Notes: generated by a model not told the origin, from the sequence alone. Positions 3,901-26,299 are shown, counted from the stretch's first letter. The stretch: DNA of 64,000 nucleotides from an uncultured Methanomassiliicoccales archaeon (GCA_963695345.1 OY968769.1:2446441-2510440), one strand, 5' to 3'. Numbers and translations are program-made.

Positions 3901-4135
3901 CATTGAACCGCTGCATCCTCTTGAACCTGATGATGGTATCCTTGATGGTCTTGTTCCACGCCGTTCCCAGGTGGATGTATCCAGTGGTGTAGGGGGGACC
4001 ATCGACGAAGTAATAGTCAGGACCGCTCGCCCGGAGCTCCTTCGTCTTCTTGTAGGCATCGGTCTTGGTCCAGAATTCCCGGACCGCTTTCTCTAGTTTA
4101 GCAGGATTGTAACTGGCTTGGACTTGCTTTATCAT
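920..4135 (-). CDS. ileS: isoleucyl-tRNA synthetase (frameshifted in this assembly; 3' boundary uncertain)
   Basis: Start is MIKQVQASYNPAKLEKAVREFWTK, followed by HLGTAWNKTIKD, WTTTPWTLP, GHGPEDFELG, WCISRQRYWGIPIP and KMSKSKGN. The reading frame switches at about 3180, 2860 and 2690. No in-frame stop separates it from the downstream DUF835 gene. Confidence 0.85.
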
Positions 4136-4330
4136 CGCCGTCCCTTCTGTCGCCCAGATGCCGCCAGACAATATAAACTACATGGTCCAGAAAGCTGTGC
4201 TTCGTAACATCGGCATTGAGGGGACCGCAATAAATTGGCCGGTCATCTTATTAAGGTTCCTTTCCCAGGAACGGAAAACGAAATCATATGTCCGGAACAA
4301 CGCGTTTGCCGATCATTTCCGGGACCCGGC

Positions 4331-8058: not shown

Positions 8059-9159
8059 ATGAAGGTCGCGTGGATCCAAGTTCTATCCAGCGCTGGGCTT
8101 TCCGGCTCCGCGTTGCTGATCCCGAACATGCTTCGGGGGGATTTTGGCGCCAACACCATCGAGATCGGCCTCATCACCGCAGTTTTCAACGCCGCCGTCT
8201 TCTCCTCCTCATGGATATTCGGCAGGGCCACCGACGTACACGGTAAAAGACGCATATTGCGGATGGGGCTGCTGATAACCTCCATCGCCCTTATCCTTCA
8301 GGTATTCGCCCACGACACCATGATGCTGGGCCTTTCCCGGATATTCGTGGGAATGGCCTGCGGCATCTATCCCTCCGCCCTGCTTTGCCACGTATACGAG
8401 AGCGACAAGAAGGTGGGCAAGTTCAGTGCCTTCGGCAGCCTGGGCTTCGGTGTCGGAACCTTCCTGGCAGGCGCCATCGGGATATATTACGGCATATTCA
8501 TCGTGAGCGGGGCCATGCTCTTCCTGGCGTTCCTCATCTCGCTCTATCTGCCGTTCCATGCGGAGCGTTGCCATAAGGTACCATATTTCCCGGCGAAGAT
8601 AATCAGGCGCAATTTCCCGGTGTACATTTCGGTCATGTTCCGGCATATCGGCGCCAACATGATATGGGTGGTTTACGCGCTGTTCCTGGCCGACCTGGGG
8701 GCGGACCCGCTATTCATCGGTCTGGTCTACGGCATCAATGCCGGGGCCCAGTTCGTTTTCATGAACTTCGTCGATCGTTTCGGGTCGAGGAGGCTGGTGC
8801 TCTTCGGGTTCATATTCTCCATGCTGACCTTCCCATCGTACACGCTGGCCACCAGCTACTGGATGATAATCCCGAGCCAGGTGATGATCGCCGCCTCGTG
8901 GTCCTGCCTCTATGTGGGCTCGGTCAAATACATCATGGAGCGGAACGAGGAGAAAGGGACCAGCGCCGGACTGCTGCAGTCCTTCCTCAGCATCTCGGCG
9001 ATCGCCGGGGCATTGATCGGAGGAATGGCCACCTTCAGCCTGGGATATCATGGGACCATGTACTTGGCCACGGTAATGGCCGTGCTGGGCCTGGTAGTGT
9101 TCTTCTTCAGCAACAAATGGATGGAGCGCCACGACGCAAAAGAGCTTAATGCATCATGA
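8059..9159 (+). CDS. MFS transporter
   Basis: Intact 366-aa ORF, 12-TM pattern with MFS-like loops (GRATDVHGKRRILRMG; DRFGSRRL). The 3' end (KELNAS*) lies inside the 25-bp direct repeat. Confidence 0.8.
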   Translation: MKVAWIQVLSSAGLSGSALLIPNMLRGDFGANTIEIGLITAVFNAAVFSSSWIFGRATDVHGKRRILRMGLLITSIALILQVFAHDTMMLGLSRIFVGMACGIYPSALLCHVYESDKKVGKFSAFGSLGFGVGTFLAGAIGIYYGIFIVSGAMLFLAFLISLYLPFHAERCHKVPYFPAKIIRRNFPVYISVMFRHIGANMIWVVYALFLADLGADPLFIGLVYGINAGAQFVFMNFVDRFGSRRLVLFGFIFSMLTFPSYTLATSYWMIIPSQVMIAASWSCLYVGSVKYIMERNEEKGTSAGLLQSFLSISAIAGALIGGMATFSLGYHGTMYLATVMAVLGLVVFFFSNKWMERHDAKELNAS

Positions 9160-9160
9160 T
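9136..9160. repeat. 25-bp direct repeat copy 1 (gcaaaagagcttaatgcatcatgat), putative att site
   Basis: Identical 25-mer recurs at 10252-10276. It overlaps the MFS stop codon. Confidence 0.8.
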
Positions 9161-9620
9161 TTGACTGGCTCAGGGGCTTCGGGGCAAGCTTGTCCATCGC
9201 TGCGGCAAGACGGTCCTCCGTCACACCGATATAGCACTTGAAGGTCGTGTTCGGGTTGTCGTGCCTCATCAGCAAGGCGATCGTCTCCAATTCTACACCC
9301 TGCTCCCAAAGCCGATATCCGAATGTCCTCCGCATGTCGCGGGGGCGGAACTTCACTCCTGACGCCTGCGAAATCTCCGCCACTTGATGCCTCGTCGACT
9401 TGGTTCATTGGCTTCGGGCCGAATTTCCCCGTCCACATGAGGAAGGTCCCGTTCGCCAGAAACTTCGCTGCCCGTAGCTCCATGGACTGCTCGATGTATG
9501 CCTTGGCGTACTTGTTTGCCTTCTGCCAGGCGACTTTCCCACCGTTCCTGCCCTTCCCCCGGATCATTGACCCATTCAGGGACAGGAATTCCAAGGCGTT
9601 CACCTGTGTTAGCCTGCACA
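9160..9620 (-). pseudogene. tyrosine recombinase/integrase, C-terminal catalytic fragment (N-terminally truncated, frameshifted)
   Basis: ALEFLSLNGSMIRGKGRNGGKVAWQKANKYAKAYIEQ, then after a frameshift RPRDMRRTFGYRLWEQGVELETIALLMRHDNPNTTFKCYIGV (R..HxxR..Y catalytic motifs). No N-terminal domain is present. Confidence 0.7.
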
Positions 9621-10004
9621 TGTCGACCGGACGCAACCAATATCATCGGAGCGGCACCGGGAACGCACTACCTCGACATCTCCGCCGACGGCAACTGGAC
9701 TGTGACTATCGAGCAACCGAGGACGAGCTCGGCTCCAGCAATACCGCAGACCCTCACAGGGACGAGCGACGACGCCAAGGCGGTCATGCTGACGTCCGGG
9801 GCGATCAAGTTCGACATGAGCTATATCGGGGACGGCAACTTCATCGACCTGGTTTACGACGCTGATGGTAATGCTGAGGGGTTGCTCGCCAACGAGATCG
9901 ATACGTACTCCGGATCGAAGTCCATCAGCGTGACGACGCCCGGGATACACTACCTCTACATCACCGGCATCGGCTCCTGGAGCATCACCGTCACGCATCT
10001 GTGA
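9498..10004 (+). CDS. fragment of a beta-rich secreted-type protein (hypothetical), inside the element remnant
   Basis: Only the distal part reads protein-like (THYLDISADGNWTVTIEQP...GIHYLYITGIGSWSITVTHL). The N-terminal part of the ORF is probably spurious. Confidence 0.3.
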   Translation: MPWRTCLPSARRLSHRSCPSPGSLTHSGTGIPRRSPVLACTCRPDATNIIGAAPGTHYLDISADGNWTVTIEQPRTSSAPAIPQTLTGTSDDAKAVMLTSGAIKFDMSYIGDGNFIDLVYDADGNAEGLLANEIDTYSGSKSISVTTPGIHYLYITGIGSWSITVTHL

Positions 10005-10251
10005 ATGGAATTTCGGGATAGCTCCAAACCTCAAATCTATCGACCAAAGTGGAGTTCCTGCTTCTTCAGGCCGTGCTTCCCGTTGAGGGCCGAATTGTCG
10101 GCAATTATGTACTCATCGCAGAAGTGACAGAGGTTGTGCTGTCTATTACCACAATGTTGCCCCGCCTTTGGTCAACACCGGCCATCTCCAAGAGTGAAAG
10201 GACCTGTTCCCGGACCTTGCCCCTTCCGTCCAATCCAGTCAGACGGACCGG

Positions 10252-10276
10252 GCAAAAGAGCTTAATGCATCATGAT
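10252..10276. repeat. 25-bp direct repeat copy 2 (putative att site)
   Basis: Identical to 9136-9160. Lies 14 bp upstream of the rnz GTG start. Confidence 0.8.
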
Positions 10277-10289
10277 ACGATGAGGGGCC

Positions 10290-11264
10290 GTGGAAATCGT
10301 CTTCCTTGGGACTGGAGGTAGCGTACCGACCAGAAATCGCAACACCAGCGCTACCGCGGTCCGGGTCGGGTCGGAGATATTGCTGTTCGATTGCGGTGAG
10401 GGGACCCAAAGGCAGCTGATGAGTTCCACCGTCTCCTTCATGAAGATCACCAGGATCTTCATCACCCATCTACACGGAGATCATTTCCTGGGCCTGCCCG
10501 GTCTGATCCAGTCGATGAACTTCGCCGGACGGCTGGAGCCTTTGGAAATCTACGGTCCGGAAGGAACATCGACCACCGTCGACACGATACTGAACCTGGG
10601 TTATTTCCAGGCCGGGTTCGAGGTGGTCGGCCACGACGTCGCTGACCTTGACGCAGTTCATGGAAAGGGCTATACGGTCAAGGCGGTAAGGACCGACCAT
10701 AGCATTCCCTCGTTCGGTTTCGTTCTCAGCGAGGATGTCCGGCCAGGTAAGTTCAACAAGGCGAAGGCGATGGAACTGGGGGTGCCCGAGGGCCCTTTCT
10801 ATTCCAAGCTGCAGTCCGGTTCCAGCGTCAATGTCGATGGCAGAACGATATCGCCGGAGATGGTCATCGGCGACCCCCGGCCCGGGCTCAAGGTGGCATT
10901 CTCCGGAGACACCAGACCGAGCGAGCATTTCATGGAATCGGTCCTGGGATGCGACCTGCTGGTGCACGAGGCGACCGCTGACGTCTCGTTGCAGGAGAAG
11001 GCGAAGGAATTCGGCCATTCCACCGCCCGGGATGCGGCCACCATCGCCCTGTTGGCCGGTGTCAAGGCCCTCTACCTGAATCATTTCAGCGGCAGGTACG
11101 AGGACGTCGGCCTGCTGGTGGATGAGGCCCGGGACATATTCCCGAACACCTTCGCCTCCGAGGACCTCATGGTCCTGCAGGTCAACTATGACGGGACGGT
11201 CACCTCAAAGCAGCTTCAGCACGTCCGAGCTGGTTATGATCCCGACGATCGAGCCCTTCCTTGA
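10290..11264 (+). CDS. rnz: ribonuclease Z (metallo-beta-lactamase tRNA 3' endonuclease)
   Basis: VEIVFLGTGGSVPTRNRNTSATAV, ITHLHGDHFLGLPGLI, VAFSGDTRP, LVHEATA. GTG start. The 3' end may be shorter than the ORF, which overlaps the convergent CBS gene. Confidence 0.85.
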   Translation: MEIVFLGTGGSVPTRNRNTSATAVRVGSEILLFDCGEGTQRQLMSSTVSFMKITRIFITHLHGDHFLGLPGLIQSMNFAGRLEPLEIYGPEGTSTTVDTILNLGYFQAGFEVVGHDVADLDAVHGKGYTVKAVRTDHSIPSFGFVLSEDVRPGKFNKAKAMELGVPEGPFYSKLQSGSSVNVDGRTISPEMVIGDPRPGLKVAFSGDTRPSEHFMESVLGCDLLVHEATADVSLQEKAKEFGHSTARDAATIALLAGVKALYLNHFSGRYEDVGLLVDEARDIFPNTFASEDLMVLQVNYDGTVTSKQLQHVRAGYDPDDRALP

Positions 11265-11768
11265 TACGAGCACGGCGTTGGAGGCCGACAGCAGCGAGGT
11301 CACCACTTCGACGGCGGCCTCCTCGCTGACTATGGGAAAGGAATCCATCATGATGGAGCCGACGCTCTGTTCTCCGAGGTCCTCCATCTTGGTGCCGTCC
11401 CGGAGCATGCTCAATATCTTGAACTCGCTGATGCTCCCGACATGCTGGACACCGTTGAAGACCGGAAGCTGCGAGTAGCCGCTCTCCCTCATGACCTCGG
11501 TGGCCCGCTTGACCTTCTCATTGGACTGGATGCTGATGATGTTGGTGGAGGCGACATCCTTTGCCCTCATCCCCTCGCGCCTCTTGCTCATCTCCTCCTG
11601 CAGGACCTCGAAGATCCTGACAACGGCAGCATAACTCCCCTTGATGCTGCCCCTTTCCATCTTGGCAATGGTCGATTGACTTACACCGGATAGCGAGGCC
11701 AATTCGGACTGGGTGATGTCCAGGCTCTTCCGCAATTTCTTGATCTCGGTCTCATCAGGGAACTTCAT
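11205..11768 (-). CDS. HTH (XRE-type) + CBS-pair transcriptional regulator
   Basis: MKFPDETEIKKLRKSLDITQSELASLSGVSQSTIAKMERG (HTH), then two CBS motifs (ISIQSNEKVKRATEVMRESGYSQLPV...; AVLVSRKGSIVGIITSSDVLKLL). Confidence 0.8.
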   Translation of the reverse strand: MKFPDETEIKKLRKSLDITQSELASLSGVSQSTIAKMERGSIKGSYAAVVRIFEVLQEEMSKRREGMRAKDVASTNIISIQSNEKVKRATEVMRESGYSQLPVFNGVQHVGSISEFKILSMLRDGTKMEDLGEQSVGSIMMDSFPIVSEEAAVEVVTSLLSASNAVLVSRKGSIVGIITSSDVLKLL

Positions 11769-11917
11769 GGCAATACCCACATGTTATTAGTCATATATGA
11801 ATAATTGAGTCAATAGGGCTTATATGACCGAACCAATTACAAGCGCCTAGCTCAGTTCCCGGCCAGACCTTGTCATCCATTTGTCTGGTCAAGGGATTGT
11901 GATTACATAACGAACAG

Positions 11918-13210
11918 GTGACCATCATGGCATCCAAGCCGATCAAGAAGACCACAGCAAAGAAGCCAGCGGCAAAGAAGATCCAGAAGAACATCATTAT
12001 CGAGAGCTTGAACCTGACTCCCATCGAGAAGCAGAGGGTAGAGCTCGTTGAGCGCAAGGGCCTGGGACACCCGGACACGATCTCCGACGGATTGGCAGAA
12101 TCGGTCAGCCGAGCGCTCTGCAAGATGTACCTGGACCGGTACGGGGAGGTCCTCCACCACAACACCGACCAGAACGAGGTAGTGGGCGGACAGAGCGCCC
12201 CCAAGTTCGGCGGCGGAAGAATGCTGGAGCCCATATATATCGTCCTGATCGGCAGGGCCATAACTCAGGTGGACGGCGAAAGGCTCCCGTATGCCACGAC
12301 CGCCATCGGAGCGGCCAAGGATTACCTGAAGAACTTCCCGCACCTGGACGTCAACAACGATGTCATTGTCGACTGCAAGATCGGGAAGGGCAGCATCGAC
12401 CTGATCAAGAACTTCGAATCCCTCGCGGACAAGTGCAAGATCAACGGCAACCAGAACAGCTGCATGCTGGCCAACGATACGTCCTTCGGATGCAGCTTCG
12501 CGCCGCTCTCCCAGACCGAGACGGTTACGCTCGAGGTCGAGAGGTACATCAACGGCGCGATGAAGAAGAAACTGAAGGAGACCGGTCAGGACGTCAAGGT
12601 CATGGCCGCCAGGAACAACGACAAGATCACCCTGACCATCGCCTGCGCCATGGTGGACAAGTTCGTCCCGGACGCCGACCACTACGTCAATGTCGTGCAG
12701 GAGATGACCGAGCGGGTGTCCGACTACGCCTCGAAGTTCACCGAGTACGATGTCAAGGTCGACATCAACCACGCCGACGACTACAAGAACGGCAACTACT
12801 ACCTGACCGTGACCGGCCTCAGCGCGGAGAACGGGGACGACGGCTCTGTGGGCCGCGGAAACCGGGTCAACGGCCTGATCACCCCCTACCGCTCCATGAG
12901 CATGGAGGCGTCCGCCGGAAAGAACCCGATCACCCACGTCGGCAAGATGTACAACATCCTCGCCAACTGGATCGCCCGGGACATAGTCAAGGAGGCCGGC
13001 GGGGACGTTCAGGAAGCCCAGGTCAGGATCCTGTCCCAGATCGGAAGGCCGATCAACGACCCGCAGACCTGCAGCGTCCAGCTTATCCTGGGAGATGGTG
13101 TTAACTTCGAAAAGACCCAGAAAAAGGCCCTCGCGGTGGCCGACAACTGGTTCGAGAACATCAACAAGGTCACGGAGAAAGTTGTAAAAGGCGAAGTAAC
13201 GGTATTCTAA
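11918..13210 (+). CDS. metK: archaeal-type S-adenosylmethionine synthetase
   Basis: Intact 430-aa ORF. VERKGLGHPDTISDGLAESVSRALCKMYL and GDDGSVGRGNRVNGLITPYRSMSMEA are characteristic of the archaeal MAT family. Confidence 0.9.
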   Translation: MTIMASKPIKKTTAKKPAAKKIQKNIIIESLNLTPIEKQRVELVERKGLGHPDTISDGLAESVSRALCKMYLDRYGEVLHHNTDQNEVVGGQSAPKFGGGRMLEPIYIVLIGRAITQVDGERLPYATTAIGAAKDYLKNFPHLDVNNDVIVDCKIGKGSIDLIKNFESLADKCKINGNQNSCMLANDTSFGCSFAPLSQTETVTLEVERYINGAMKKKLKETGQDVKVMAARNNDKITLTIACAMVDKFVPDADHYVNVVQEMTERVSDYASKFTEYDVKVDINHADDYKNGNYYLTVTGLSAENGDDGSVGRGNRVNGLITPYRSMSMEASAGKNPITHVGKMYNILANWIARDIVKEAGGDVQEAQVRILSQIGRPINDPQTCSVQLILGDGVNFEKTQKKALAVADNWFENINKVTEKVVKGEVTVF

Positions 13211-13213
13211 GCG

Positions 13214-13798
13214 ATGAAACTCGTTGATTTGCCCAGATATGGTCCGGTGCACCGGTTCGCCGATTACCACGTCTTCAAAACCCTTTCCATCCTATCCGAT
13301 GGGAAGCGCAAGGGGCGCAAGCAACTTGCAGACATGGTCAATGTGGGCGAGGGCAGCATGCGGACCATCATCGAATACCTGCGCGACCGGGAGATGATCG
13401 ATGTCAAGCAGACCGGCGTCAAGATCTCCAGCAAAGGACACGAGTTCCTCGGCAACCTTCCCATCTACATGGAGAGGGTCGAGCCTACCGACAGTACGCT
13501 GGGTGAGAGGAGCGCGGCGGTGCTGGTCAAGGGCCAAAGCATGAAGATCAAGTTAGGGGTCGAACAGAGGGACAGCGCCATCAAGGCCGGGGCGGAGGGG
13601 GCGACCACCATCATCGTCTCCGGTGACCACCTGATCGTCCCTCCGGATTATGATCTGGATGTCGAACGGCCGGAGTTCACGCAGACGCTGAGGAGACTTC
13701 TGGCACTGAGCGAGGGCGATGTGATAATCATCGGCACCGGGAAGACCTACGATAGGGCGGAGGACGGTGCCCTGGCGGCCGCCTTCGAACTGATCTGA
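13214..13798 (+). CDS. conserved archaeal protein with N-terminal winged-HTH-like region (putative regulator)
   Basis: Intact 194-aa ORF directly after metK. Family assignment from the sequence alone is uncertain. Confidence 0.5.
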   Translation: MKLVDLPRYGPVHRFADYHVFKTLSILSDGKRKGRKQLADMVNVGEGSMRTIIEYLRDREMIDVKQTGVKISSKGHEFLGNLPIYMERVEPTDSTLGERSAAVLVKGQSMKIKLGVEQRDSAIKAGAEGATTIIVSGDHLIVPPDYDLDVERPEFTQTLRRLLALSEGDVIIIGTGKTYDRAEDGALAAAFELI

Positions 13799-14244
13799 CA
13801 ATGCCCCGCCCATAGACCATTTGGAATAAACGGGTTCTCGGGGTCAATCCGCCTCGCGCATTCCGCCCCATCATCTCTTTCCCTCGCGGTCAGGATATGG
13901 AAATGCCATATGACCGTTCCACTGGCTGTTTTTGATGGATGGGGGCCGTTGTCGGAATTTCCCATTAACAAAACAGACGACTTGTGCAGCAGGCCGTCCC
14001 GATGATCATTGTCTCACTAACGTTACAGAATTTCACAAGGTAGCCTTTTCTGAGGCCATCGGTCAACACATTACCTGGGGATTACTCGATCCAGAAAACG
14101 AGACCAGATGGTTCGTCGATTCGTCAGGAATTGACTGGCGGAAGCGAACGGTCCGAATATGTGAATTCTGACAATTCCTCGTTGGACGAGGGTTGAAATA
14201 TTGGATAATACATCCAACTACTAGGACCGGTCAAAAACCGGCGG

Positions 14245-16147
14245 GTGGAGTTTGTAATGAATGTGAAAAGCATCATCGCATGTTTCATGGTTATTTCCTT
14301 CATGTTAATGAGCGCAGTTCCGGTCAACGCGGCATCGTCCCAAGCGACCGCGGCAGTACTGATCGATTTCGGCGATGGCACCGCCTATTGGGCGGACGTG
14401 CCGGTCGGATCGGATATGAACGCGTTCAATCTGACCACTGAGGCTACCACAGCATTGAGCCTCCCGATCGACTATACGGTCTTCTCCTGGGGAGTATCGG
14501 TCAACTCGATAGGTGGGTATACTGGGGGCTGGCCTAACGAATGGTGGCATTTCTGGACCTGGAACACGACCACCAGCTCCTGGAGCATGTCCATGCTCGG
14601 TGCCTCCAGCGTCAATGCATCAAGCTACACCGCATACGCCTGGAGCTATGTCCAGGACAGGCCGGACTATTCCGCTCCCCTGCCCCAGTCCGACCCGGTG
14701 AACCGTTACAGCTGGGGACAGAGCAGGCACGATAACCTCAACACCGGTTACAGCAACATCACCACCAGCATTTCCAATGACACGGTCTTCACGACCAACC
14801 TGAACAACGGCAAGATCGACCCGACCATGGTGGTCAGCGGATCGCGCATCTTCGTCGTCACCGAGGGGATCTATAATTACACCACCTACTCGTACGACAA
14901 ATCCCCCAAGGTATTCTGCCTCAATCTCGCTGGATCGATCGTCTGGTCCGCCAACATCTCCGGTGGCGGCTGGCAGCTGGCATCGGCCGTGGTCGCAGGA
15001 GACCAGCTCATCGTCCCGTCCACCGACTGTAACGTGTACTCGTTCAGCGTTACGAACGGTTCCTTGCTCTGGACCTATGCACTGCCCTTCTCATGGACCG
15101 GGATCACTTCCTCGCCCATAGTCTATCGCGACCAGATCATAATTGCCAGCGGTGACGGAAACGTAACTGCGCTGGCCTTGAACGGCACCAAGCTCTGGAA
15201 CACCAAGATAGCGTCTTCGATCTACTTCTCTGCCCCGTCCGTGAAGGATGGAGTGATCTATGTCGGTTCCGAGGACAGCAAACTGCACGCAGTGAGTGCC
15301 AACGGTTCCGGGGAGGCATGGAACGTAACCGTGCCCGGTAAGGTCCGCAGCTCGCCTCTGCTGCTCGGAGACAAGATCGTGATCACATACGCTGTCTACA
15401 GCGGAATGGTGGCCATTGATGGAGGGGTCGCAGCATACAACTATACCGGTGTGCAAAAGTGGAACGTGAACATTAATTCCACCTCCTCTTCGGTGGCATG
15501 GACGCCTAAGGGCATCATCGCCACAAGTGTGACCGGTGCGACCATGATATCCGAGGAGGGAGCCGTGCTCTGGAGCAAGGACCTCGGCGTGGTCAAGAGC
15601 TCGCCCGGCGTGAGCCGGTCCGGAATATACCTGGTCAGCTACGGGACCCCGGCTACCCTGACCATGCTGGACTTCAACGGCACAATGCTGTTCAACAAGA
15701 CCCTTTCACCATCTGACTATTCGATGGTTTCACCGACGATCGCGAATGGAAGGGTCTATGTGGCCGCAGACAACGGTTACGTCTACTGTCTGGAGAACCT
15801 GCCGCCCGTGCTGACCCTGTCCAGCGCCGTTGTCGATCAGCATGAAGGTGACGTTCACCGCCCAAGCCATAGATGCGGAGGCGGTCACGGTGACCTGGGA
15901 CTTCGGCGATGGCAACACCAGCACAGGCTTGGTGGTCAACCACACCTACGCAAAGGCCGGCAACTACAGTGTCGCCTTCTGGGCAACGGACGCACAGGGA
16001 GGAAATGCCCATGAGGTGTTCACGGTGAACGTGGCAGCGATCGCTGCCGAGACCGACAACACCTTGCTGTACGGCGTAGTGGCCATAGTGGCCATCGTCC
16101 TCGTGGCGGGTATCGTGGTCTTCTTCATGAGGGGCAAGAAGAAGTAG
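14245..16147 (+). CDS. cell-surface protein: signal peptide, PQQ-like beta-propeller repeats, PKD domain, C-terminal TM anchor (frameshift near 15830)
   Basis: N-terminal signal/TM (IIACFMVISFMLMSAVPVNA). Repeated ...G.L(L)W... propeller blades, for example NGSLLWTYALP, NGTKLWNTKIA, GAVLWSKDLG. PKD signature TWDFGDGNTSTG...HTYAKAGNYSV. Ends with TM + FFMRGKKK. More than 25 N-x-S/T sequons. Confidence 0.7.
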
Positions 16148-16155
16148 GTGGTCAA

Positions 16156-16662
16156 ATGAAAAAAACAACACTGGTGGTCATTGCCGTCGTCGTGCTGGCA
16201 GCGGTGGTGCTGGTGAGCGGCATGGGGCTTTTCCCCGGCAGCTCCAGCAACGGCGCCAAGAACAAGACCGCGACCATGACCATCAGCTTTTCCGATGCCT
16301 CGACCAGTCACTTCCGGGGCAACGTCACCACCTGGTCCAACGCGTCCGGGAGCTGGACCTACGAGACCCATGCCAGCGGCGACGGGACCACCCGGTTCGT
16401 GTTCGAGAACATGAGCTTCGGTTCGAACGTGATGGACCTGATGATGGAGTGTTCCAAGGTCGGCGATTTCACGGTGGTTCGGCAGGCCTACGTCGGGATG
16501 GGGACGATAATCCAGAGCTTGGACGGCGTCGCCAATGAGAATCCGGGAAGGGGCTGGCAGTACTACGTGAACGGGACCTATGCCCTGATCGCGTGCGACA
16601 AGACATTGCTCAACGGCGGAGAGGTCATCGACTGGAAGTTCGTCACGCTACAAGGAAGCTAG
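16156..16662 (+). CDS. DUF4430-domain secreted/anchored protein (transcobalamin-like fold family, ECF-associated)
   Basis: N-terminal TM/signal MKKTTLVVIAVVVLAAVVLVSG, and GWQYYVNGTYALIACDKTLLNGGEVIDWKF matches the DUF4430 C-terminal signature. Lies immediately upstream of ecfT. Confidence 0.6.
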   Translation: MKKTTLVVIAVVVLAAVVLVSGMGLFPGSSSNGAKNKTATMTISFSDASTSHFRGNVTTWSNASGSWTYETHASGDGTTRFVFENMSFGSNVMDLMMECSKVGDFTVVRQAYVGMGTIIQSLDGVANENPGRGWQYYVNGTYALIACDKTLLNGGEVIDWKFVTLQGS

Positions 16663-16664
16663 AA

Positions 16665-17639
16665 ATGATATTCCCGTATAAGGACACTAACTCAAGGATC
16701 CATAAGTTGGATGCCCGGCCCAAGATCGTGTTCGTACTGGCAATGTTCGTGATGTCCGTGCTTCTTTCGGACATCGTCTACCTGGTGATCCTGTTCCTTT
16801 TCATCCTGGTGGTGGCGCTCGCCGGCAGGGTGCTCCGCTCCACATTGTCCCTTCTCAAGTACACATCGTTCATGATCCCGTTCATATTCCTTTTCAACGT
16901 GCTGTTGTCCCAGGGCTATGACGTGATATTCAGCTACGGGATAATCAGGATCACGTCGGAATCGATATGGTTCGCAACCAGCATGTGCTTCCGGCTGTTC
17001 GTGGCGGTAGGCTCCTTCTCGCTGCTCGCCTTCATCGTGCATCCGGACGAAGCACTCCGGGCCATGTCAAGGTTCGGCCACAAGACCACAACGTCGTTCT
17101 CCCTGGCCACCAGGATGTACCCCACCATAGCGACCGATTCGAAGAACATCATGGACGCCATGCGGGTAAGGGGGGTGGAGTTCGATGAGGGGGGAGCGCT
17201 CAAGAAGGCCCAGGCCCGCTCACCGGTGGTAATGCCCCTGTTGATGAACTCTCTCGAGCGGTCGGTAGGGATATCAGAGGCCATGGAGGCGCGCGGATTC
17301 GGGTCCGGCAAGAGGACGGCCTACATCATCGCCATGATCACGCCCCGGGAGATCGCCATGGTGGTCTCGTTCTTCGCGGCGATGGTGTTCGCCGTCGCCA
17401 TGTTCATACTGGGATATGGACAGGTCGATTACCTGGCCGGTGAGATGACCAGGCCGACCCTGACCGACTTCGAGATCGTCGGCGTCATATTGCTGTTGCT
17501 GGTACGCCAATATTCCTGGGGGGAAAGAAATGATAGAGGTGGATCGGCTCTCTTTCCAGTATGTCGGCGCGAGCACCAACTCATTGAGCAATGTGAACCT
17601 GCGGATAAAGGAGGGGGAGTTCATCCTGGTGCTGGGTAA
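16665..17639 (+). CDS. ecfT: ECF transporter transmembrane (T) component
   Basis: MIFPYKDTNSRIHKLDARPKIVFVLAMFV... multi-TM with conserved ...ATDSKNIMDAMRVRGVEF... and ...ERSVGISEAMEARGFG (CbiQ/EcfT motifs). The real stop is probably near 17530. Confidence 0.75.
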   Translation: MIFPYKDTNSRIHKLDARPKIVFVLAMFVMSVLLSDIVYLVILFLFILVVALAGRVLRSTLSLLKYTSFMIPFIFLFNVLLSQGYDVIFSYGIIRITSESIWFATSMCFRLFVAVGSFSLLAFIVHPDEALRAMSRFGHKTTTSFSLATRMYPTIATDSKNIMDAMRVRGVEFDEGGALKKAQARSPVVMPLLMNSLERSVGISEAMEARGFGSGKRTAYIIAMITPREIAMVVSFFAAMVFAVAMFILGYGQVDYLAGEMTRPTLTDFEIVGVILLLLVRQYSWGERNDRGGSALFPVCRREHQLIEQCEPADKGGGVHPGAG

Positions 17640-18990
17640 ATCCGGTTGCGGCAAGTCCACCCTTTGCCGTGCGCTGAACGGCCTCATCCCCCATTTCTAC
17701 GGCGGAAGGATCTCCGGTCACGTGGTCGTCGATGGCATGGACACCAGGCAGCATTCCACCTGCGACTACGCCAACCTGGTGGGCATGGTGTTCCAGGACC
17801 CCGAGAACCAACTGGTCATGACCAATGTGGAGAACGAGATGGCGTTCGGGATGGAGAACACCTGCGTTCCCACCGCGATCATGAGGGAGAGGGTGCTCCA
17901 ATACTCCGAATACCTGGACCTGACCCAGTTCCTGACCCGTTTCATCCCCGAACTGAGCGGGGGGGAGAAGCAGAAGGTGGCCATGGCATCCATCCTGGCC
18001 ATGCGGCCGAAGTACATTGTGCTGGACGAACCGACATCCCAGCTGGACGGGGACAATGCCGTTCTGTTCCTGGAGTTCCTCAAGCAGATGAACCGGGAAT
18101 TGGGGATATCGGTCATACTGGTCGAGCACCGGGTCGAACGATGCATAGACTATCCCGACAGGATAATCGTCATGGACCAGGGCTCCATCGTGAAGGATGG
18201 ACCGCGGGACGAGATGATCGAGTACATGAAAGGAATGGGTCTGCTGAACGCGCCGGAGGGCCGCAATGTGGCCATCCCCGATGGCAATCCGGATATCATC
18301 GAGGCGGAGAACATCAGTTTCGGTTACGAAGGCCGGGAAGTGCTCAAATGCCTGGGACTGAAGGTGAAGGCCGGAGAGCTGGTCTCCATCACCGGTGACA
18401 ACGGGAGCGGCAAATCCACCCTGATGAAGAACCTCAATGGACTGCTGCGGCCAAGGACCGGCGACGTGAAGGTCAACGGCAAGAGCATCTCCGGAATGAC
18501 ATCGGCGTCGATCGCCAAGACCATCGGCTATCTGGGGCAGAACCCTAACGACTACCTGTTCGAGGAATCGCTCGAGGCGGAGCTCATGTTTACCCTCCGT
18601 AACCTCAAGGTGGACCAGAGGGAATGGGATGAGCGGATCCACTGGGCGCTCGGGATCCTGGATATGGAACGATATCTGAAGCGGTTCCCCCGGGACCTGA
18701 GCTGCGGCGAGAGGGAGAGGGCGGCGTTGGCATCGATCCTGGTGGCCAGACCCAAGGTCCTGATACTCGACGAGCCGACCAGGGGTCTGGACCAGTGGAA
18801 CAAGGCCAAGCTGGGGGATATCCTCGGCAAGCTCCGCTGCAGAGGGGCAGACCACCATCCTGGTCACCCACGATTACCGTTTCATCGCCGAATACTCCAG
18901 CCGGGTGCTCCGTTTGAAGGACGGGTGCCTGACGGAGATCTCCCTGGACGACATGATGGCCATGGCCAGGGAAGAGCTGGGGGTGGTCTG
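17530..18990 (+). CDS. ecfA: ECF transporter ATPase, duplicated EcfA-EcfA' fusion (frameshift near 18843)
   Basis: Two ABC cassettes: GKSGCGKSTL...LSGGEKQKVAMA...LDEPTSQLD, and GDNGSGKSTL...LSCGERERAALA...LDEPTRGLD. The tail resumes in another frame (TTILVTHDYRF...). Confidence 0.85.
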
Positions 18991-18991
18991 A

Positions 18992-19776
18992 ATGGAGACC
19001 GATACGATGGATACCGTGAGCGTCAGGACGCATTCGCGGGTCACCTACAAGTCATTGGTCCCGACCTTCGCGACCATCATCGTGGGGGCGTTCATTCTCT
19101 ATCTCACGTTCGTCAACTCATCGGAGCTGAAGACCTATGCGGCCTTGCTCACGAACGCCTTCATGCTGCTCCTGCTGATCACGTTCTTCGGCCGGTTCGA
19201 GGAGACGTCGGTAAGCTCGAAGGAGGTGGCCCTGATCGGCATCCTCGGAGCCATCATCGCCGCCTCCCGCATCCCGTTCGCAGCCATTCCCAACGTGCAG
19301 CCGTGCACCTTCCTGATCATGGCGGTCGGTCTGGTCTTCGGACCGCTGGCCGGGTTCATGGTGGGGGGCACGACCGCCATCGTCTCCAACCTCTTCCTCG
19401 GGATGGGGCCCTGGACGATCTGGCAGATGGCGGGATGGGGCTTGGTCGGCTTCGTCTCCGGACTCATCGGAAAGAAGAAGCAAGGAAATGAGCGTGGCCA
19501 AGATGGCCATCCTCTGCTTCGCGCTCGGCTGGATGTACAATGAGGTGCTTGACTTCAGCAGCTGGGTTTGGTTGTATAACATGGACCTGGCGAAGTTCCG
19601 TTTCATGTTCGGCGCAGGGCCTGCCTTTCGGACTATTGCACGCCGGAGGCAACGTCGTCTTCACCTGCGCTATCGGAAAACCGGTCCTGCGCGCGTTCCG
19701 TCGTTTCCAGTCCCGGTTCCAGGTGACCTACGTGGACAAGGTCCGTTCGCCCGCCGTCATTCCGGATGAGGTTTGA
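18992..19776 (+). CDS. ECF transporter substrate-specific (S) component (two frameshifts; 3' end uncertain)
   Basis: Six-TM small membrane protein (ATIIVGAFILYLTFV, LLLLITFFG, IGILGAIIAAS, FLIMAVGLVFGP, IWQMAGWGLVGFVSGL). It takes the S-component position after ecfAA'. Confidence 0.6.
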
Positions 19777-21897
19777 CCGCCGGCCTTAGCATGTCCATGA
19801 GCTCGTCCAGGTCATGCGTCGGTTTGAGACAGCTGCCGTTCTGGCACAGATAGGCGGTCGGTCTTCCCGTCGATAGGGACCTTGTCCCTCAGGCTGGAGA
19901 GGTTCTTGCACTCGGCCAGTTTCTTTTCCCGAACCGGATGGAGCATCACGATCGAATAGGGAAGGTAGATGGAATTGACCGCGTCTATCATCGCCTTTGT
20001 CCGTTTATCGCCCGGGTCGCCCGCTATGACCAGTACCTGGGCTGGCTTCAGCATCATCCTCAGCCCCATGATGAAGAAGGACAATGCGTCGGGGACCTTG
20101 GACAGGTAGAAATCGTAGTACCTGGCGGAGCTAGTCGCCGCCTCGAGCAGCTTCTGGTCGTCGATCATCGAGGAAAGCAAGGCAAGGTCATAGGCCATGA
20201 CCGAATTGGCCGAAGGCACGGCACCGTCGGATATCTCCTTGCTCAGATAGCACCAGGTCTTCCTTGGCCATGGAGTTGTAGAAGCCTCCCCTTTCGTCGC
20301 CGAACAGATCGATGGTCCTCCTCGTGTAATCGACCGCCCGGTTCAGGTAACGTACCTCGAAGGTGGCCTGGTAAAGCTCCAGCAGCCCCCAGATGTAGTA
20401 GGAATGGTCGGAGAGCATGCCGTTGACCCTCGCCTCCCCGTCACGGTACATATGGAACAGGCCGCCCTCCGGTGACGCCAGGAACCCTTCGATCGCATCC
20501 ACCGCCCGCTTGGCCGCCTGCAGGTAACGTTCCTGCCCGAAGGCCCTTCCCGCTTTGGCCAAGGCGGCGATCATGAGGCCGTTCCAATCGGTCAGGACCT
20601 TGTCGTCACGGGCCGGCCGGATCCGCAGCTCGCGGACCGCCTTCAGCCTTTCCACGCATGTTTCCAGGTAGTCGGTCAGCTCGGCCGGGCTCATGTCGAA
20701 CTTGGCCGCCAGGGTGGCAATGGTCGGCGGTCAGGTGCAGGAGGTTGCGATCGATGTCGCCCTCCCTGCCAGAACCGATGGTTCCCTCGGGATGCACATC
20801 GAAGCATTCCATGAAGATCTCGGGCCTCAGGTCCTTCAGCACATCCTCGATCTCTTCGTAGGTCCAGGTGTAGAACTTTCCTTCCACGCCCTCGCTGTCG
20901 GCATCCTCCGAGGCACAGAAGGCCCCCCTGCTCGGAAACCAGGTCCTTGAGGACATACTCGATCGTCGTCCTCTGCGACCTTCTTGAAATCGTCCTTGCC
21001 GGTGGCCTGATATGCCTCCACGTACGCGATGCAGATCAATGCCTGGTCATAGAGCATCTTTTCGAAATGAGGCATGATCCATTGTTCGTCGGTGGAATAT
21101 CGGTGGAATCCCCCTCCGATATGGTCATGGATGCCCCCCAAGCATCATGTTGGTGAGGGTCCAGTCGGCCATTCTCAGGGCTTCGGCATCACCGGTGTCA
21201 TGCCAATAGCGGAGAAGGAAGATGGATTTGTGCGGGATCGGGAACTTGGGCGACTTCTCGAATCCTCCGATACTTCTCCTCGTACGTCTTCTTCAAACCC
21301 CTAAAGGCATCATCCAGATAGTTGACGCTCGGCTCGCCCGGCCTGACGATCTCCATGGCGGCGATGTCCTTGACGATGGTCGAGGTGATGGATTGGATCT
21401 CTCCCTGCTCTTCCCTCCAGGCGGCGGAGATGGCATTCAGTACGGTGATTATATCCGACATTCCGAACTGTCCGTTCCTGCGGAATGTAGGTCGCGGCGA
21501 AGAAAGGTATCTTCTCCGGCGTCATTACGATGGTCAGCGGCCAACCTCCGCCTCCGGTCATGGCCTGGCATGCCTTCATGTAAAGCTCATCGATGTCCGG
21601 CCGCTCCTCCCGGTCGACCTTGATCGCCACATATTCCGCGTTGAGCGTTCTCGCGACCTCCTCGTCCTCGAACGACTCCCTCTCCATGACGTGACACCAA
21701 TGGCAGGCCGAATAGCCTATGGAAAGGAAGATCGGCCTTCCGGTCCGCTTCGCCTCCGAGAAGGCCTCCTCACCCCAAGGATACCAATCCACCGGGTTGT
21801 GGGAGTGCATGATGAGATATGGGCTCTTCTCGTTCACAAATGGTTGGAGTGTTGCGGCTTCGGCTCCATGGACTACCTTCAGGGGAAGATTCATCAA
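19757..21897 (-). CDS. thioredoxin-domain protein, YyaL/DUF255 + six-hairpin glycosidase-like (at least 5 frameshifts)
   Basis: N-terminus [46 protein letters not shown], later [25 protein letters not shown], and C-terminus [30 protein letters not shown] recovered in an alternate frame. Confidence 0.75.
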
Positions 21898-22491: not shown

Positions 22492-23946
22492 TCAGCGGGT
22501 CACTCTGTCAATCAGTTGCTTCTCCTTGTTATAGACCGAGATCTCCAGAGGCATCTGACCGACTGCGAAGTGGGTGGCGCACCCGAAGCAGGGGTCGTAG
22601 GCCCGGAAGGCCATCTCCACCTTGTTCAGTATGTTCTCGTCCACCTTTCCTCCGTGTATCAGGCCCTTGGCGGCATCGCGGATGCTCATGCAGATCGCCG
22701 GATAGTTGTTGGTGGTGGCGACGATCATGTTGACGTTCCTGCACCAGGGCGTTCTCGTCCAGCCGGTAGTGGTGGATGAGCGTTCCTCTGGCCGCCTCGA
22801 CGATGCCGACACCCTCGCCTGGCTCTCCCGGCTTGTTCCGTACGTCGGTGCTGGTGATCTCCGGGTCGCTCGCCAGTTCGACGGCGCGTTCGGCCGCGTA
22901 CAGCAGCTCGATGAGCCGGGCCCAGTGGAAGACCAGGGTGCCATGCGCCGGCTTGCCCAGCATCGCGAACATCCGCTCGTACTCCTGCCTGAGCCAGGGG
23001 TGTGGCCATCCCGTCCGCGGCGTTCAGCCGGCCAGGGGACCGACCCTGTAGATGCCATTGTCCGGTCCGTCGGTGAAGCCGTTCCACCCGACCTTCCGCA
23101 GGAAGGGGAACTTGGAGTAGGTCCACTCCTCCGAGCGCTCCTCGATATGCTCGGCGTAGTCGGCCGCCCCGAACCGGGAGAACTCCTTGCCTGAAGGGTC
23201 GACCACCCGGACCTCGCCATCGTAGAAGTTGACGCGGTTCTTCGCGTCCACCATTCCCATGTAATAGGTCCTCATGGTGTAGGCGTCGCTCTTGATCATG
23301 TCCAGGTACTTCGGGTTGTCCAGCACCAGGTCGTGGAACAGCTGCAGCGTGAACTGGGCGAAGTTCACCGAGGACTTGGCCATCTCCAGTATGGCGAGTC
23401 GGATCTCCTCGCTGAGCGGCTTGCTCATCCCGCCGGGCAGTCCGCTGACCGGATGGGTGGCCTTACCGCCGATGATCTCGGTGATCTTCTGGCCATAGGC
23501 GCGGTGCTTGATCACCTCCTTGGCGACGTCCAGCCCCGCCTTCTCGATCACGCCCAGGATGTTGCGCTTCTCCGCCGGCGCATCCGGTCCGACGATGAAG
23601 TCCGGTCCGCCCAGATAGTAGAAGTGCAGCGTATGGTCGTAGATGATGTAGCCCATGTACTGGAGCTCCCTCAGCTTCTTCGCGGCCGAAGGCGGAGTCG
23701 ACCTGGAACGCCGCGTCCAAGGCCTTGACCGAGGCGTAGATGGTGGGCCACCGGGCACACCCCGCATATCCTGGTGGTGATGATGGGCATGAGCTCGGCT
23801 GGGCGGCCGACGCAGAAGGCCTCGAAGCCCCTGAGCTCAGGGACCTTGAGGTATGCGTTCTCCACCTCACCATCGTCGTTGAGGAAGATGGACACGCTGC
23901 CGTGCCCTTCCAGCCTGGTGATCGGGTCGATGTTGATCTCCTTCAT
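22492..23946 (-). CDS. mvhA: [NiFe] hydrogenase large subunit, Mvh-type (about 3 frameshifts)
   Basis: N-terminus MKEINIDPITRLEGHGSVSI...RICGVCPVAHHL. Internal GLPGGMSKPLSEE. C-terminus DPCFGCATH, the proximal Ni-binding motif. Confidence 0.85.
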
Positions 23947-23949
23947 TCT

Positions 23950-24950
23950 TTCATCACCTTCCTTTGCAGGATGGACGCCGGCAGGCTGTACATGTAGAAT
24001 ATGCCCACCGGGTCCTTGATCTGCGATATGAGCTTGGTCGACTTCCTCGTCAGTGTACGTTCCCGGCTCCTTGTCCAGGTTCAGGATGGAGGCCAGTGCC
24101 GTGATCATTCCCGCTCCCATGTCGGGCTGGTTGGGCGCCGCACCGCCGCAGCCGGTGCAGGGCATGTCCACCTTGAGGCACTGGGCTCCGCAGCCGCTGC
24201 GGGTGGCCATCCCCATGCATATGATGCCCTGCTCCATCAGGCAGCGCTCCGGTTCCGGGGTGATCTCGTACACCCGGTGGATGCTGGAGATCTTCTTGTT
24301 CTCCCGCTTGCGGGGGCATTGGTCGCACACCGCCGGCAACGGCGCCAGGACCGAGCCCTTGGGAGGCAGTTCGTTCTTCACGATAGCTTCCAACGCCTTG
24401 TTGATGAGAACGACCGGCGGCGGGCAGCCAGGCAGGAAGTAGTCGACATCGACGGTCTGGTCCAGCGTCCTGACGGTATCGTAGAACATCGGAATGTCGA
24501 AGCGTACCCTCCTTCACGGCGGTCTCGGCTCGGGATAATGCGCCGTCGTCCGTGAACTTCGTTGCGAGTAGACCTGCTCCAGTATGCCCTTGGCATCGCT
24601 GAGGTTCGCCAGTCCGGGCACGGAACCCTCGTTGGCGCATGATCCGAAGGCGACCAGGGTCTGGGATTTGGAGCGGAGCAGCTTCGCCATGTGCTCCTGC
24701 TCGCTGTTCCGTATCGAGCCGTTGAAGAACGTGATGTCGATGTGACCGTCCGGCATCGCCTCGACGTCCTTGTACTTGACGTCCATCGCCACCGGCCAGA
24801 AGACGATGTCCACCGACCTTGACGACATCGAGAATCGTCTCGTTGATGTCCAGGACGGCTATCTCGCAGCCGCCGCAGCTGGCCGCCCAGTAGAACGCTA
24901 CTCCTCAGTTTCCGGTCGATGTTCACTCCCCCTCTTGTGCTCTCGTTCAT
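23950..24950 (-). CDS. mvhG: [NiFe] hydrogenase small subunit, Mvh-type (frameshifts; boundaries approximate)
   Basis: MNESTRGGVNIDRKLR then AFYWAASCGGCEIAVLDINE (N-terminal cluster Cys), DIVFWPVAMDVKY...LVAFGSCANEGSVPGL, and FYDTVRTLDQTVDVDYFLPGCPPP. Confidence 0.8.
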
Positions 24951-26299
24951 GAGATATTCGTGCATCGCCTTGGCAGCACGCTTCCCTGCCCCCATGGCAC
25001 TGATGACGGTGGCAGCACCGGTGGCCACGTCACCGCCGGCGAACACGCCCTTCAGGTTGGTCCGTCCCTCTGCATCGACGATGATGGTGCCGTTTCGCGG
25101 ATTGGTCACCAGCCCCTCGGTGGTGCGCTGGATGATGGGGTTCGGCGTCTGGCCGATGGCGACGATGACGGTATCGGCCGGGATCTCGAAATCCGAACAG
25201 ACAATGGGCTTGACACCCTGCCTGCCCCTGTTCGTCCGGTTCTGTCAGCTCCATGCAGGTGCATCTCATGGACTTGACCCAGCCCTTCTCGTCACCGTAG
25301 AACTCGATCGGGGCGCTGAGGAACTTGCACATCAACCCTTCCTCCTCGGCGTTCTCGATCTCCTCCCTCCTGGCTGGCAGCTCGTTCCGCGAACGCCGGT
25401 AGTTCAGGCAGACCGTCGCCCCTAGCCTCATGGATATGCGGGCGCAGTCCATGGCCACGTTCCCTCCGCCGATGACGACCACGTGCTTGCCGATGCGGAT
25501 CGGGGTGTCCTTTTCCGGGAAGTCGTAGGCCTTCATCAGGTTGACCCGGATGAGGAACTCGTTGGCCGAGTAGATGCCGCCCAGGTTCTCACCGGGGCAT
25601 CCGGTCCACTGCGGGAGGCCGGCCCCGCTGCCGATGAATATCGCATCGTAACCGTTCTCCAACAGTTCCGGGATGGTGTGTATCCTCCCGATGAGATTGC
25701 CCAGTCGCAGGTCCACCCCCAGCTTCTGCACGTACTCGATCTCCTTCTGGACGATCTCCTTGGGCAGACGGAACTCCGGGATGCCATAGCTGAGCACACC
25801 GCCGGCCACATGCAGCGCCTCGAACAACGTCACCTCATGACCTAGTCTTGCCAGGTCGGATGCTGCCGTCAATCCCGCCGGGCCGGCACCGATGACCGCC
25901 ACCTTCTTTCCGGTTGGAGGCACCTTCTCCGGGATCTGCACTCCATGCTCCCTCTCCCAGTCGGCCAGGAACCTCTCGAGGCGTCCGATGTTGACCGGAT
26001 CGCCCTTCTTGCCCTTAATGCACTTCATCTGGCACTGCTCCTCCTGCGGGCAGACGCGTCCGCAGACGGCGGGAAGGGCGTTCTTTGACTTTATGATCGC
26101 AATGCCTTCGGCGTACTTTCCCTCAAGGATGCAGTCGATGAACTCCGGGATAGGCACGTCCACGGGGCAGCCTTTCCGGCATTGGGGGTTCTTGCACTTG
26201 CAGGCACCGGGCCGCCTCTTTCAGGGCCATCTCCTCGGTGTAGCCAAGAGCGACCTCGCTGAAGTTCTTGACCCGCTCGTCAGGCTCCTGCCTCGGCAT
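24948..26299 (-). CDS. nfnB: glutamate-synthase-small-subunit-like NADPH oxidoreductase (SudA/NfnB homolog; frameshifts near 26190 and 25215)
   Basis: MPRQEPDERVKNFSEVALGYTEEMALKEAARCLQ..., then VAVIGAGPAGLTAASDLARLGHEVTLFEA, GGNVAMDCAR, and C-terminus VFAGGDVATGAATVISAMGAGKRAAKAMHEYL. Confidence 0.8.

Follow-up and report, generated by a model that had tools for sequence, protein, structure and literature searches.

A candidate operon for corrinoid scavenging in Methanomassiliicoccales, with a dedicated ECF transporter, transcobalamin-like surface proteins and a conserved upstream palindrome

The locus, its transporter and its surface proteins

We analysed a stretch of 64,000 nucleotides from an uncultured Methanomassiliicoccales archaeon (GCA_963695345.1 OY968769.1:2446441-2510440), hereafter called the window, in which positions 14245-19776 carry five genes predicted to serve the uptake of a corrinoid by an energy-coupling factor (ECF) transporter. 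All coordinates are those of the whole 64-kb window unless a related locus is named. The five genes had been described as co-directional in the original prediction, and all of them were found on the + strand, tightly packed and preceded by a short palindrome:

14201-14217, strand not assigned: 17-bp palindrome TTGGATAATACATCCAA, a candidate operator, recognised in an alignment of the upstream regions of related loci
14245-16147, + strand: g1, surface glycoprotein with PQQ_2 and PKD domains, likely start ATG 14257, 634 aa after frame joining
14341-14661, + strand: cryptic SLBB/DUF4430-like domain in the g1 N-terminus, detected with hhalign
16156-16662, + strand: g2, DUF4430/SLBB protein with an N-terminal membrane anchor, 168 aa (Pfam DUF4430)
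16665-17533, + strand: g3, ECF T component of the CbiQ family, 289 aa after joining (Pfam CbiQ)
17530-18991, + strand: g4, fused EcfA-EcfA' ATPase, 486 aa after joining (two ABC_tran)
18992-19776, + strand: g5, CbrT-type ECF S component, 259 aa after joining (PF07155, PF12822)

The junctions g1/g2, g2/g3, g3/g4 and g4/g5 measure 8, 2, -4 and 0 nt, respectively: the stop codon of g3 overlaps the start codon of g4 (ATGA), and g5 begins at the base directly after the g4 stop. Only g2 is an intact open reading frame (ORF), and g1, g3, g4 and g5 need a frame correction, the nature of which is weighed further below; once corrected, the proteins can be aligned with intact homologues over their whole length. 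The five genes probably constitute one operon for corrinoid scavenging and ATP-driven import in a Methanomassiliicoccus-like methanogen of gut or soil, the inferred substrates being complete cobamides and/or cobinamide-type precursors.

The transporter genes could be assigned with Pfam and NCBIfam, which bore out the earlier description of a T component, an A-A' ATPase in a single polypeptide and an S component of its own. That is, g3 matches PF02361 (CbiQ family) in Pfam at 79.4 bits (cut-off 25), and g4 contains two ABC_tran stretches in Pfam and scores 390.8 against ECF_ATPase_1 (cut-off 315) and 369.5 against ECF_ATPase_2 (cut-off 330) in NCBIfam. All three hallmarks of a dedicated (group I) ECF transporter are therefore present, i.e. 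a T component, two ATP-binding cassette (ABC) domains and an S component encoded in the same operon. For g5, NCBIfam and Pfam gave no substrate family, the matches being to the generic PF07155/PF12822, with the RibU and FolT models below threshold. The class of the S component was therefore settled by a structure-database search, in which a profile of 33 homologues (A1) was compared with all PDB chains. The sole significant chain was 6fnp_A (CbrT; E 1.9e-19, residues 10-176 of 182), and the next match was HmpT with an E-value of 3. The original prediction had left this class to be determined and had spoken of corrinoid or cobalt uptake; the S component falls with CbrT and not with CbiM, QueT or FolT, so that the corrinoid part of that statement is supported and the cobalt part is not, neither CbiM nor CbiN being encoded. 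By BLASTP, g5 is 29% identical to CbrT over 146 aa (E 1e-12), a value inside the range of 25-60% identity at which the authors of the CbrT study accepted homologues (PMC5997447). The 6FNP structure is that of ECF-CbrT from Lactobacillus delbrueckii, in which CbrT binds, and ECF-CbrT transports, cobalamin and cobinamide, and hemin does not compete with transport (PMC5997447). Whole-chain homology thus supports g5 as an S component of the CbrT family, with predicted corrinoid binding and transport. g5 also carries an N-terminal extension of ~65 aa with two hydrophobic segments (18992-19200, residues 1-70), which is absent from CbrT and from most bacterial homologues.

Upstream of the transporter genes, g2 carries the sequence GWQYYVNG, on which its original assignment to DUF4430 was based, and that assignment holds after frame correction of the locus (PF14478, 39.8 bits, cut-off 23.8). 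The protein has 5 N-x-S/T sequons against 2.0 expected. In its AlphaFold2 model the core (residues 80-165) has a predicted local distance difference test score (pLDDT) of ~81-93, and the top 19 Foldseek matches in the PDB comprise only the DUF4430 structure 3u7z and beta domains from transcobalamin, intrinsic factor or haptocorrin. E-values were 4e-5 to 6e-4 for 18 of these 19 matches and 2.2e-3 for the last one, and the template-modelling (TM) score, normalised to the isolated beta domain, was 0.68-0.80. Sequence searches of the PDB with profiles of g2 and of the g1 N-terminal domain gave nothing significant, intrinsic factor appearing only at an E-value of 0.36. An iterated profile located a DUF4430 ORF in 76 related loci, where it usually ends right at the start of the T gene and where bacteria usually have two; Pfam confirmed the domain in representative bacterial and archaeal neighbours. 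Together with the match of the g2 model to the transcobalamin beta domain, this agrees with the earlier statement that the family recurs beside ECF transporters and is transcobalamin-like.

The first gene, g1, encodes in order a signal peptide, an SLBB/DUF4430-like domain, a propeller of ~8 blades of BamB/PQQ_2 type, a PKD domain and a C-terminal transmembrane anchor (Pfam: PQQ_2 97.3 bits, PKD 60.2 bits). The N-terminal segment is signal-like and the C-terminal hydrophobic transmembrane helix is followed by RGKKK; 19 N-x-S/T sequons were counted where 8.2 are expected from composition. The picture of a sequon-laden propeller/PKD protein with a C-terminal anchor was thus correct. The AlphaFold2 model (pLDDT 86.5, predicted TM score 0.81) shows an SLBB domain and then the propeller, for which the best Foldseek matches were the 8-bladed Cake8 (TMt 0.89), YxaL and BamB. 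A kinship with BtuG was considered and rejected, as BtuG lay outside the 50 best fold matches.

The N-terminal 105 residues of g1 are conserved, resemble DUF4430 by eye and contain the motifs VNSIGG and WWHFWTWN; in the model this domain has a beta-grasp-like order of strands and helix. With hhalign, it aligned to 133 DUF4430 domains from T-AA'-S loci, mostly riboswitch-linked bacterial ones, with 97.5% probability (E 7.9e-12, 95 columns), and to the g2 family with 81% probability (E 1.2e-5). Pfam saw DUF4430 there weakly, in 2 of 17 members (best E 0.0075). These alignments support a second DUF4430/SLBB-like domain at the g1 N-terminus, so that the locus would have two extracellular SLBB proteins, like bacterial operons. 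This domain adds to the original prediction, as do the conserved palindrome and the reading of such loci as B12 scavengers put forward in 2007 (PMC1796856). In that work, Burroughs, Balaji, Iyer and Aravind predicted a B12-scavenging role for transcobalamin-like SLBB proteins encoded with CbiO-like and CbiQ-like genes, often as two paralogues per operon, and noted an SLBB domain fused to a beta-propeller in a Clostridium protein (PMC1796856). No alpha/alpha-toroid was detected: g1 and g2 have no Prenyltrans or SQHop_cyclase-like match in Pfam, and the part of the g1 model that follows the SLBB domain is an all-beta propeller. A weak, sub-threshold SQHop_cyclase-like match was obtained for the bacterial relative L040.

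Related loci and their riboswitches

Scanning one genome per species with the S component yielded 80 loci, distributed over Methanomassiliicoccales, other Thermoplasmatota, Methanofastidiosum, many Bacillota and many Actinomycetota. The gene order T-AA'-S is kept in more than 70 of them, that is, in nearly all, including bacterial loci with S components at 35-44% identity. The longer order g1-g2-T-AA'-S is kept in 9 of the 9 Methanomassiliicoccales loci with enough upstream sequence, a set that includes gut-type loci with wholly different flanking genes and a g1 that lacks PKD. The surface-protein gene, which had been tied to the transporter from a single genome, is therefore syntenic in every Methanomassiliicoccales locus with upstream sequence, while the flanks differ.

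The bacterial relatives are linked to cobalamin by their leader sequences. At the Rfam gathering score, the cobalamin riboswitch RF00174 was found in 15 of the 16 bacterial loci tested, and in 14 of the 16 it is located upstream in the same orientation, L021 and L084 having it directly before the T gene. An nhmmer profile made from eight aptamers placed a riboswitch upstream in 52 bacterial loci, and the window and the archaeal loci gave no match; riboswitches of other classes were not found before the bacterial T-AA'-S modules. Because the bacterial modules sit behind cobalamin riboswitches, their control points to a corrinoid substrate. No B12 riboswitch had been recognised upstream of the archaeal operon in the original prediction, and Rfam finds none either: the whole window has no match at the gathering score, and a search of 13700-20000 at E-values up to 10 gave no match to the cobalamin clan and only three chance-level matches. 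Two other archaeal loci tested with Rfam had no cobalamin riboswitch either. The version of the locus from Desulfotomaculum copahuensis (L014) has two tandem cobalamin riboswitch aptamers upstream (433-619 and 783-973 of that locus).

A propeller gene also accompanies the transporter in some bacteria. In two Actinomycetota metagenome-assembled genomes (L016, 1380-4046; L019, 1705-4302), the first gene behind the cobalamin riboswitch encodes a PQQ_2 propeller with DUF5719 repeats, and DUF4430, T, AA' and S genes follow. phmmer detected no similarity between these propellers and that of g1, and the association of propeller and transporter may have arisen more than once, by independent recruitment.

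Directly upstream of the operon, the window contains an archaeal S-adenosylmethionine (AdoMet) synthase gene and a gene for a DUF4443/CggR_N-like helix-turn-helix (HTH) protein, the two together occupying 11918-13210 and 13214-13798. Both are syntenic in L001 and L002 and not in L004/L005, so that a link of these two neighbours to the transporter is improbable. No recognised corrin gene was seen in the window among the large ORFs that were inspected.

A palindrome shared with cobamide genes

The palindrome has the consensus TTGGAT-RATAC-ATCCAA (search pattern TTGGATRATACATCCAA) and is situated 39 nt before the likely g1 start. It occurs once in the window, where 0.06 occurrences are expected. 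Each of the 10 Methanomassiliicoccales loci with upstream sequence has it at 20-40 nt before g1, as an exact copy in six fetched loci and in the window itself and with one mismatch in three. Copies are located as follows, each in the coordinates of its own locus:

L001, 5228-5244
L004, 5450-5466
L009, 226-242
L010, 3234-3250
L086, 639-655

The sequences flanking the palindrome are otherwise unrelated, and in several loci it lies just downstream of an A/T-rich, TATA-like sequence. Its asymmetric centre is found in either orientation. An RNA hairpin was considered and set aside, since the centre occurs both ways round in different loci; the use of both orientations argues for a DNA site bound by a dimeric protein.

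A scan of metagenome contigs for the exact 17-mer, made without a shuffled-motif control, returned at least 120 loci (L087-L206), and the ORFs starting within 130 nt of each match were classed. About 47 of the 120 matches listed precede g1-like genes, uptake genes or genes of cobamide synthesis, which lie on contigs of Methanomassiliicoccales type. Among the matches listed, the classes were (scores followed by cut-offs):

g1-like genes: 6 loci
binding proteins of BtuF type with a transmembrane anchor: 13-14 loci
binding proteins with a dockerin and Peripla_BP_2: 12 loci
BtuC-like permeases: 3 loci
archaeal CobT (390.8, cut-off 240 bits): 2 loci
CobQ (446.7, cut-off 273): 1 locus
CobN (940.8, cut-off 822): 2 loci
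precorrin-2 dehydrogenase (sirC): 3 loci
CobB/CbiA (492.6, cut-off 261): 1 locus
small chelatases of CbiX/CfbA type: 2 loci
CbiT-like protein, below threshold: 1 locus
small protein with a transmembrane anchor, g2-like by eye, no family match: 1 locus

The remaining matches listed comprise one bacterial GltS locus seen nine times, HisB (4), an ABC ATPase (3), ADH (2) and ~55 low-GC or gene-less chance matches. In the GltS contigs (L088, L093, L114, L119, L125, L134, L150, L164 and L184), which are high-GC and come from gut or fermentation, the 17-mer is flanked by the gene of a sodium/glutamate symporter on one side and an unknown gene on the other, and they look like a single bacterial locus without relation to cobamides. 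The four contigs with the 17-mer near hisB are L135, L154, L173 and L174.

Taxonomy was inferred for most palindrome-bearing contigs; the clusters in which three of the queried proteins fall (CobT, a BtuC-like permease and a binding protein) carry NCBI names from Methanomassiliicoccales, Methanomethylophilaceae and Euryarchaeota. Because the palindrome is shared with such genes, the ECF operon appears to belong with cobamide uptake and synthesis, which is a line of evidence independent of the bacterial riboswitches and internal to the archaea. The palindrome thus looks like the operator of a candidate cobamide regulon. To our knowledge, no dedicated B12 operator has been described for Methanomassiliicoccales. 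In a literature search the sole archaeal case of B12 regulation found was that of TrmB, a global regulator in Halobacterium.

Several further observations concern genes close to the palindrome. An N-terminal dockerin-like calcium-binding module joined to Peripla_BP_2 (BtuF type), with a transmembrane anchor, is encoded directly behind it in L104 (308-), L106 (3506-), L116, L120, L128, L163, L089 and L097, and in L163 the binding-protein gene is divergent from a gene for a BtuC-like permease. Two candidates for a regulator were noticed, namely a Fur-family gene divergent from cobQ (L105, 1361 region) and, divergently arranged with genes for dockerin-type binding proteins, a gene for a SAM-methyltransferase with a fused ArsR-type HTH (L120, 4603 region; L167, 2388 region). 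Some palindrome-linked genes (L202, 8501 region; L196, 542 region; L186, 7827 region) score near-equal or better against the coenzyme F430 enzymes CfbA and CfbB than against cobalamin enzymes, and the regulon may cover more than one tetrapyrrole branch.

Alternative readings, proposed mechanism and comparison with known systems

The serious alternative, which we regard as unlikely, is that the system imports another tetrapyrrole, i.e. heme, a nickel tetrapyrrole of the coenzyme F430 type or an early corrin precursor, and not cobamides. It draws on the homologous operon lsa1836-1840 of Lactobacillus sakei (S, AA', T, and transcobalamin beta-like and alpha-like proteins), for which a contribution to heme uptake was reported from experiments (bioRxiv 10.1101/864751), on the suggestion of Burroughs et al. 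that SLBB systems of archaea that make B12 might scavenge a different metabolite (PMC1796856), and on the palindrome-linked genes close to F430 enzymes, among them a CfbA-type chelatase (131.6, cut-off 120) and a CobB that reaches 477.5 against the CfbB model. However, the closest bacterial modules are under cobalamin riboswitches with no other class found beside them, and the palindrome precedes the cobamide-specific genes cobT, cobQ and cobN at the scores listed above. These links and the hemin result obtained with CbrT (PMC5997447) argue against another tetrapyrrole, although the specificity may be broader. As for heme itself, Methanomassiliicoccales are, as far as we know, without cytochromes and so would have little use for it. 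A cobalt or nickel importer of the CbiMNQO/NikMNQO type, as the Pfam name 'Cobalt transport protein' hints, is scarcely credible: the T component does match CbiQ and the ATPase matches models named cbiO, but such names are given to ECF T and A components in general, the locus has neither a CbiM nor a CbiN or NikM gene, and the fold of the accessory proteins is known to bind cobalamin and not metal ions. An S component of CbrT/PF07155/PF12822 type by itself largely refutes the metal-importer reading.

It could also be asked whether g1 has nothing to do with the transporter and is a surface protein that happens to be encoded beside it. Archaeal surface proteins often contain PQQ_2/BamB-like propellers and PKD domains, which serve many purposes, the g1 propeller is closest to the protein-interaction scaffolds BamB and YxaL, and we know of no corrinoid-binding propeller of this type. 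Nevertheless, g1 has a transcobalamin-beta-like domain of its own, is the first gene after the conserved palindrome, and stays with the transporter in every Methanomassiliicoccales locus examined although the flanks differ; moreover, PQQ_2 propeller proteins are also first behind the cobalamin riboswitch in L016 and L019. We therefore hold a chance neighbourhood to be very unlikely.

The frameshifts raise the separate question of whether the operon of this genome is a decaying pseudogene cluster. The frame of g1 is broken by an extra C at ~15841 and that of g3 by a 2-nt insertion (AC) at ~17504-17505, both defined against L086, a metagenomic contig 98.4% identical to the window in which g1 (629 aa) and T (288 aa) are intact and which lacks the C at 15841 and the two bases at 17504-5. 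In g4 the frameshift lies at ~18836, where tblastn with the L001 protein splits the match between two frames, the parts joining at residue 437-439, and g5 is shifted at ~19476, in a run of K codons, and at ~19617. After correction, g3 shares 80.6% identity with its intact counterpart in L001 over 288 aa, and g5 matches P0001, an intact protein of 255 aa, over the full length at 96% identity, with a sole gap in the lysine-codon run. Genuine decay would fit with the presence of the frameshifts in the public record (a protein 100% identical to g1, P0141, stops at 585 aa on a deposited contig that also has g2 unchanged), with the position of some indels outside homopolymers, and with five genes at 8059-13795 that are free of frameshifts. 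On the other hand, essential or core genes of the same window are split as well: IleRS (profile positions 2-314 and 505-858), the hydrogenase large subunit VhuA (two or more ORFs, covering profile positions 1-70 and 85-292) and a GltA-like gene (in two), and the thioredoxin/DsbH-like gene next to the operon has ~7 shifts. Beyond the indels, the coding sequence is conserved, with neither stop codons nor substitution decay. The very uneven density of frameshifts, from which most of 42-64 kb is free, suggests patches of poor assembly consensus. Since IleRS, VhuA and the GltA-like gene are also split, and L086 and P0001 are intact, the five operon indels are probably local sequencing or assembly errors, and decay of the operon is improbable. 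Split genes, including the VhuA/VhuG hydrogenase genes, lie in 2-4177 (-), 19784-21897 (-) and 22495-26220 (-) of the window.

Some of these points bear against corrinoid uptake by a functional operon as a whole, namely the heme link of the L. sakei operon, the different metabolite considered for archaea and the frameshifts really present in the deposited genome, and others have to be set beside them. Methanomassiliicoccales reportedly have BtuFCD and genes for a large part of the anaerobic B12 pathway (PMC10804542), so that the need for a further importer is not obvious. As the archaeal operon lacks a riboswitch, the best evidence on its substrate is transferred from homologues with 35-44% (bacteria) and 29% (CbrT) identity. 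The signal read through the palindrome could be a metal rather than a cobamide. Finally, the order of the relay proposed below is deduced from topology only, and the role of the propeller is hypothetical.

If the operon does serve corrinoid uptake, its parts would work together as follows. g1 would stand off the membrane on its PKD stalk and capture the corrinoid at or beyond the S-layer, and would pass it to g2, which is tethered near the membrane by its N-terminal helix and would load the S component, giving a predicted order g1-g2-S. By analogy with ECF-CbrT, the S component would bind the corrinoid with high affinity and topple in the T-AA' module on ATP hydrolysis. If the g1 propeller touches the ligand, it might stand in for the transcobalamin alpha domain; it may instead be a scaffold. 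A dimeric regulator bound to the palindrome beside the promoter may set transcription in place of the bacterial cobalamin riboswitch, and its position would suit a repressor that shuts the operon when cobamide is sufficient. The fullest version of this model has two parts: that a dedicated palindrome-binding factor controls the ECF-CbrT operon, BtuF/BtuC-type loci and genes of the cobT, cobQ, cobN, cobB, sirC and cbiX types, and that the SLBB-propeller-PKD glycoprotein represents a new archaeal class of corrinoid-capture protein, with a propeller for the alpha domain, which feeds a membrane-tethered SLBB protein and then CbrT. The odds on these two readings appear to us about even.

Methanomassiliicoccales produce methane from methyl compounds by way of corrinoid-dependent methyltransferases, and it has been suggested that their activity in ruminants and in the human gut could be steered through B12 exchange. 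The locus, which is conserved throughout the order, would give these archaea a second corrinoid route, of high affinity and equipped with surface capture proteins of its own. It is also a test case for the function proposed for transcobalamin-like (DUF4430) proteins in prokaryotes. Should the palindrome prove to be a cobamide-responsive operator, it would offer a handle on B12 sensing in an archaeal order without a cobalamin riboswitch in the loci tested, and would be a simple sequence tag for further cobamide genes.

Parts of this picture are already known. B12 scavenging by surface transcobalamin-like proteins with CbiO/CbiQ was proposed in 2007 (PMC1796856), and CbrT was proven by Santos et al. 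in 2018 (PMC5997447), where the prediction of CbrTUV systems by Rodionov et al. in 2009 is cited. A survey of Methanomassiliicoccales genomes treats BtuFCD and CbiMNQO, and the term 'ECF' is absent from it (PMC10804542). Three features are distinctive here: a glycoprotein of SLBB-propeller-PKD type where an alpha/alpha-toroid protein would be expected, an S component extended at its N-terminus, and a palindrome that takes the place of the riboswitch. With ECF-CbrT of L. delbrueckii, the operon shares an ECF-type transporter predicted to work by ATP-driven import, a corrinoid specificity backed by the riboswitches of the bacterial modules, and an S component homologous over the whole chain, including the motifs R-I..F..PNVQP.T, SN.FLG.G.WT and HA.GN..F. 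In L. delbrueckii, however, CbrT uses a shared general module (group II), and the structure contains no surface accessory proteins, whereas the archaeal system is a dedicated group I module with fused ATPases, an S component extended by ~65 aa and two surface SLBB proteins. The L. sakei operon lsa1836-1840 contains the same kinds of gene (for S, fused AA', T and extracellular proteins of transcobalamin type), but it is assigned to heme and has separate alpha-like and beta-like proteins instead of an SLBB-propeller fusion.

In the SLBB transcobalamin-like clade, two surface SLBB proteins per operon likewise occur beside CbiO/CbiQ-like genes. The bacterial loci fetched usually pair the SLBB protein with a large wall-anchored surface protein (LPXTG in L040), whereas the Methanomassiliicoccales loci have an 8-bladed propeller, PKD, a C-terminal transmembrane anchor and dense sequons, with no alpha/alpha-toroid in Pfam, and a DNA palindrome where the bacteria have a riboswitch. 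The lipoproteins BtuG and BtuH of Bacteroides (PMC6143338, PMC10404256, PMC13616437) are alike in concept, being surface proteins, one of them a beta-propeller, that capture cobamides and deliver them to a membrane transporter through a relay of several proteins. The likeness is functional only: BtuG is seven-bladed and shows no sign of homology to the ~8-bladed, BamB/YxaL-like g1, and the receiver in Bacteroides is the TonB-dependent BtuB, whereas here it would be an ECF system and the cell has only one membrane.

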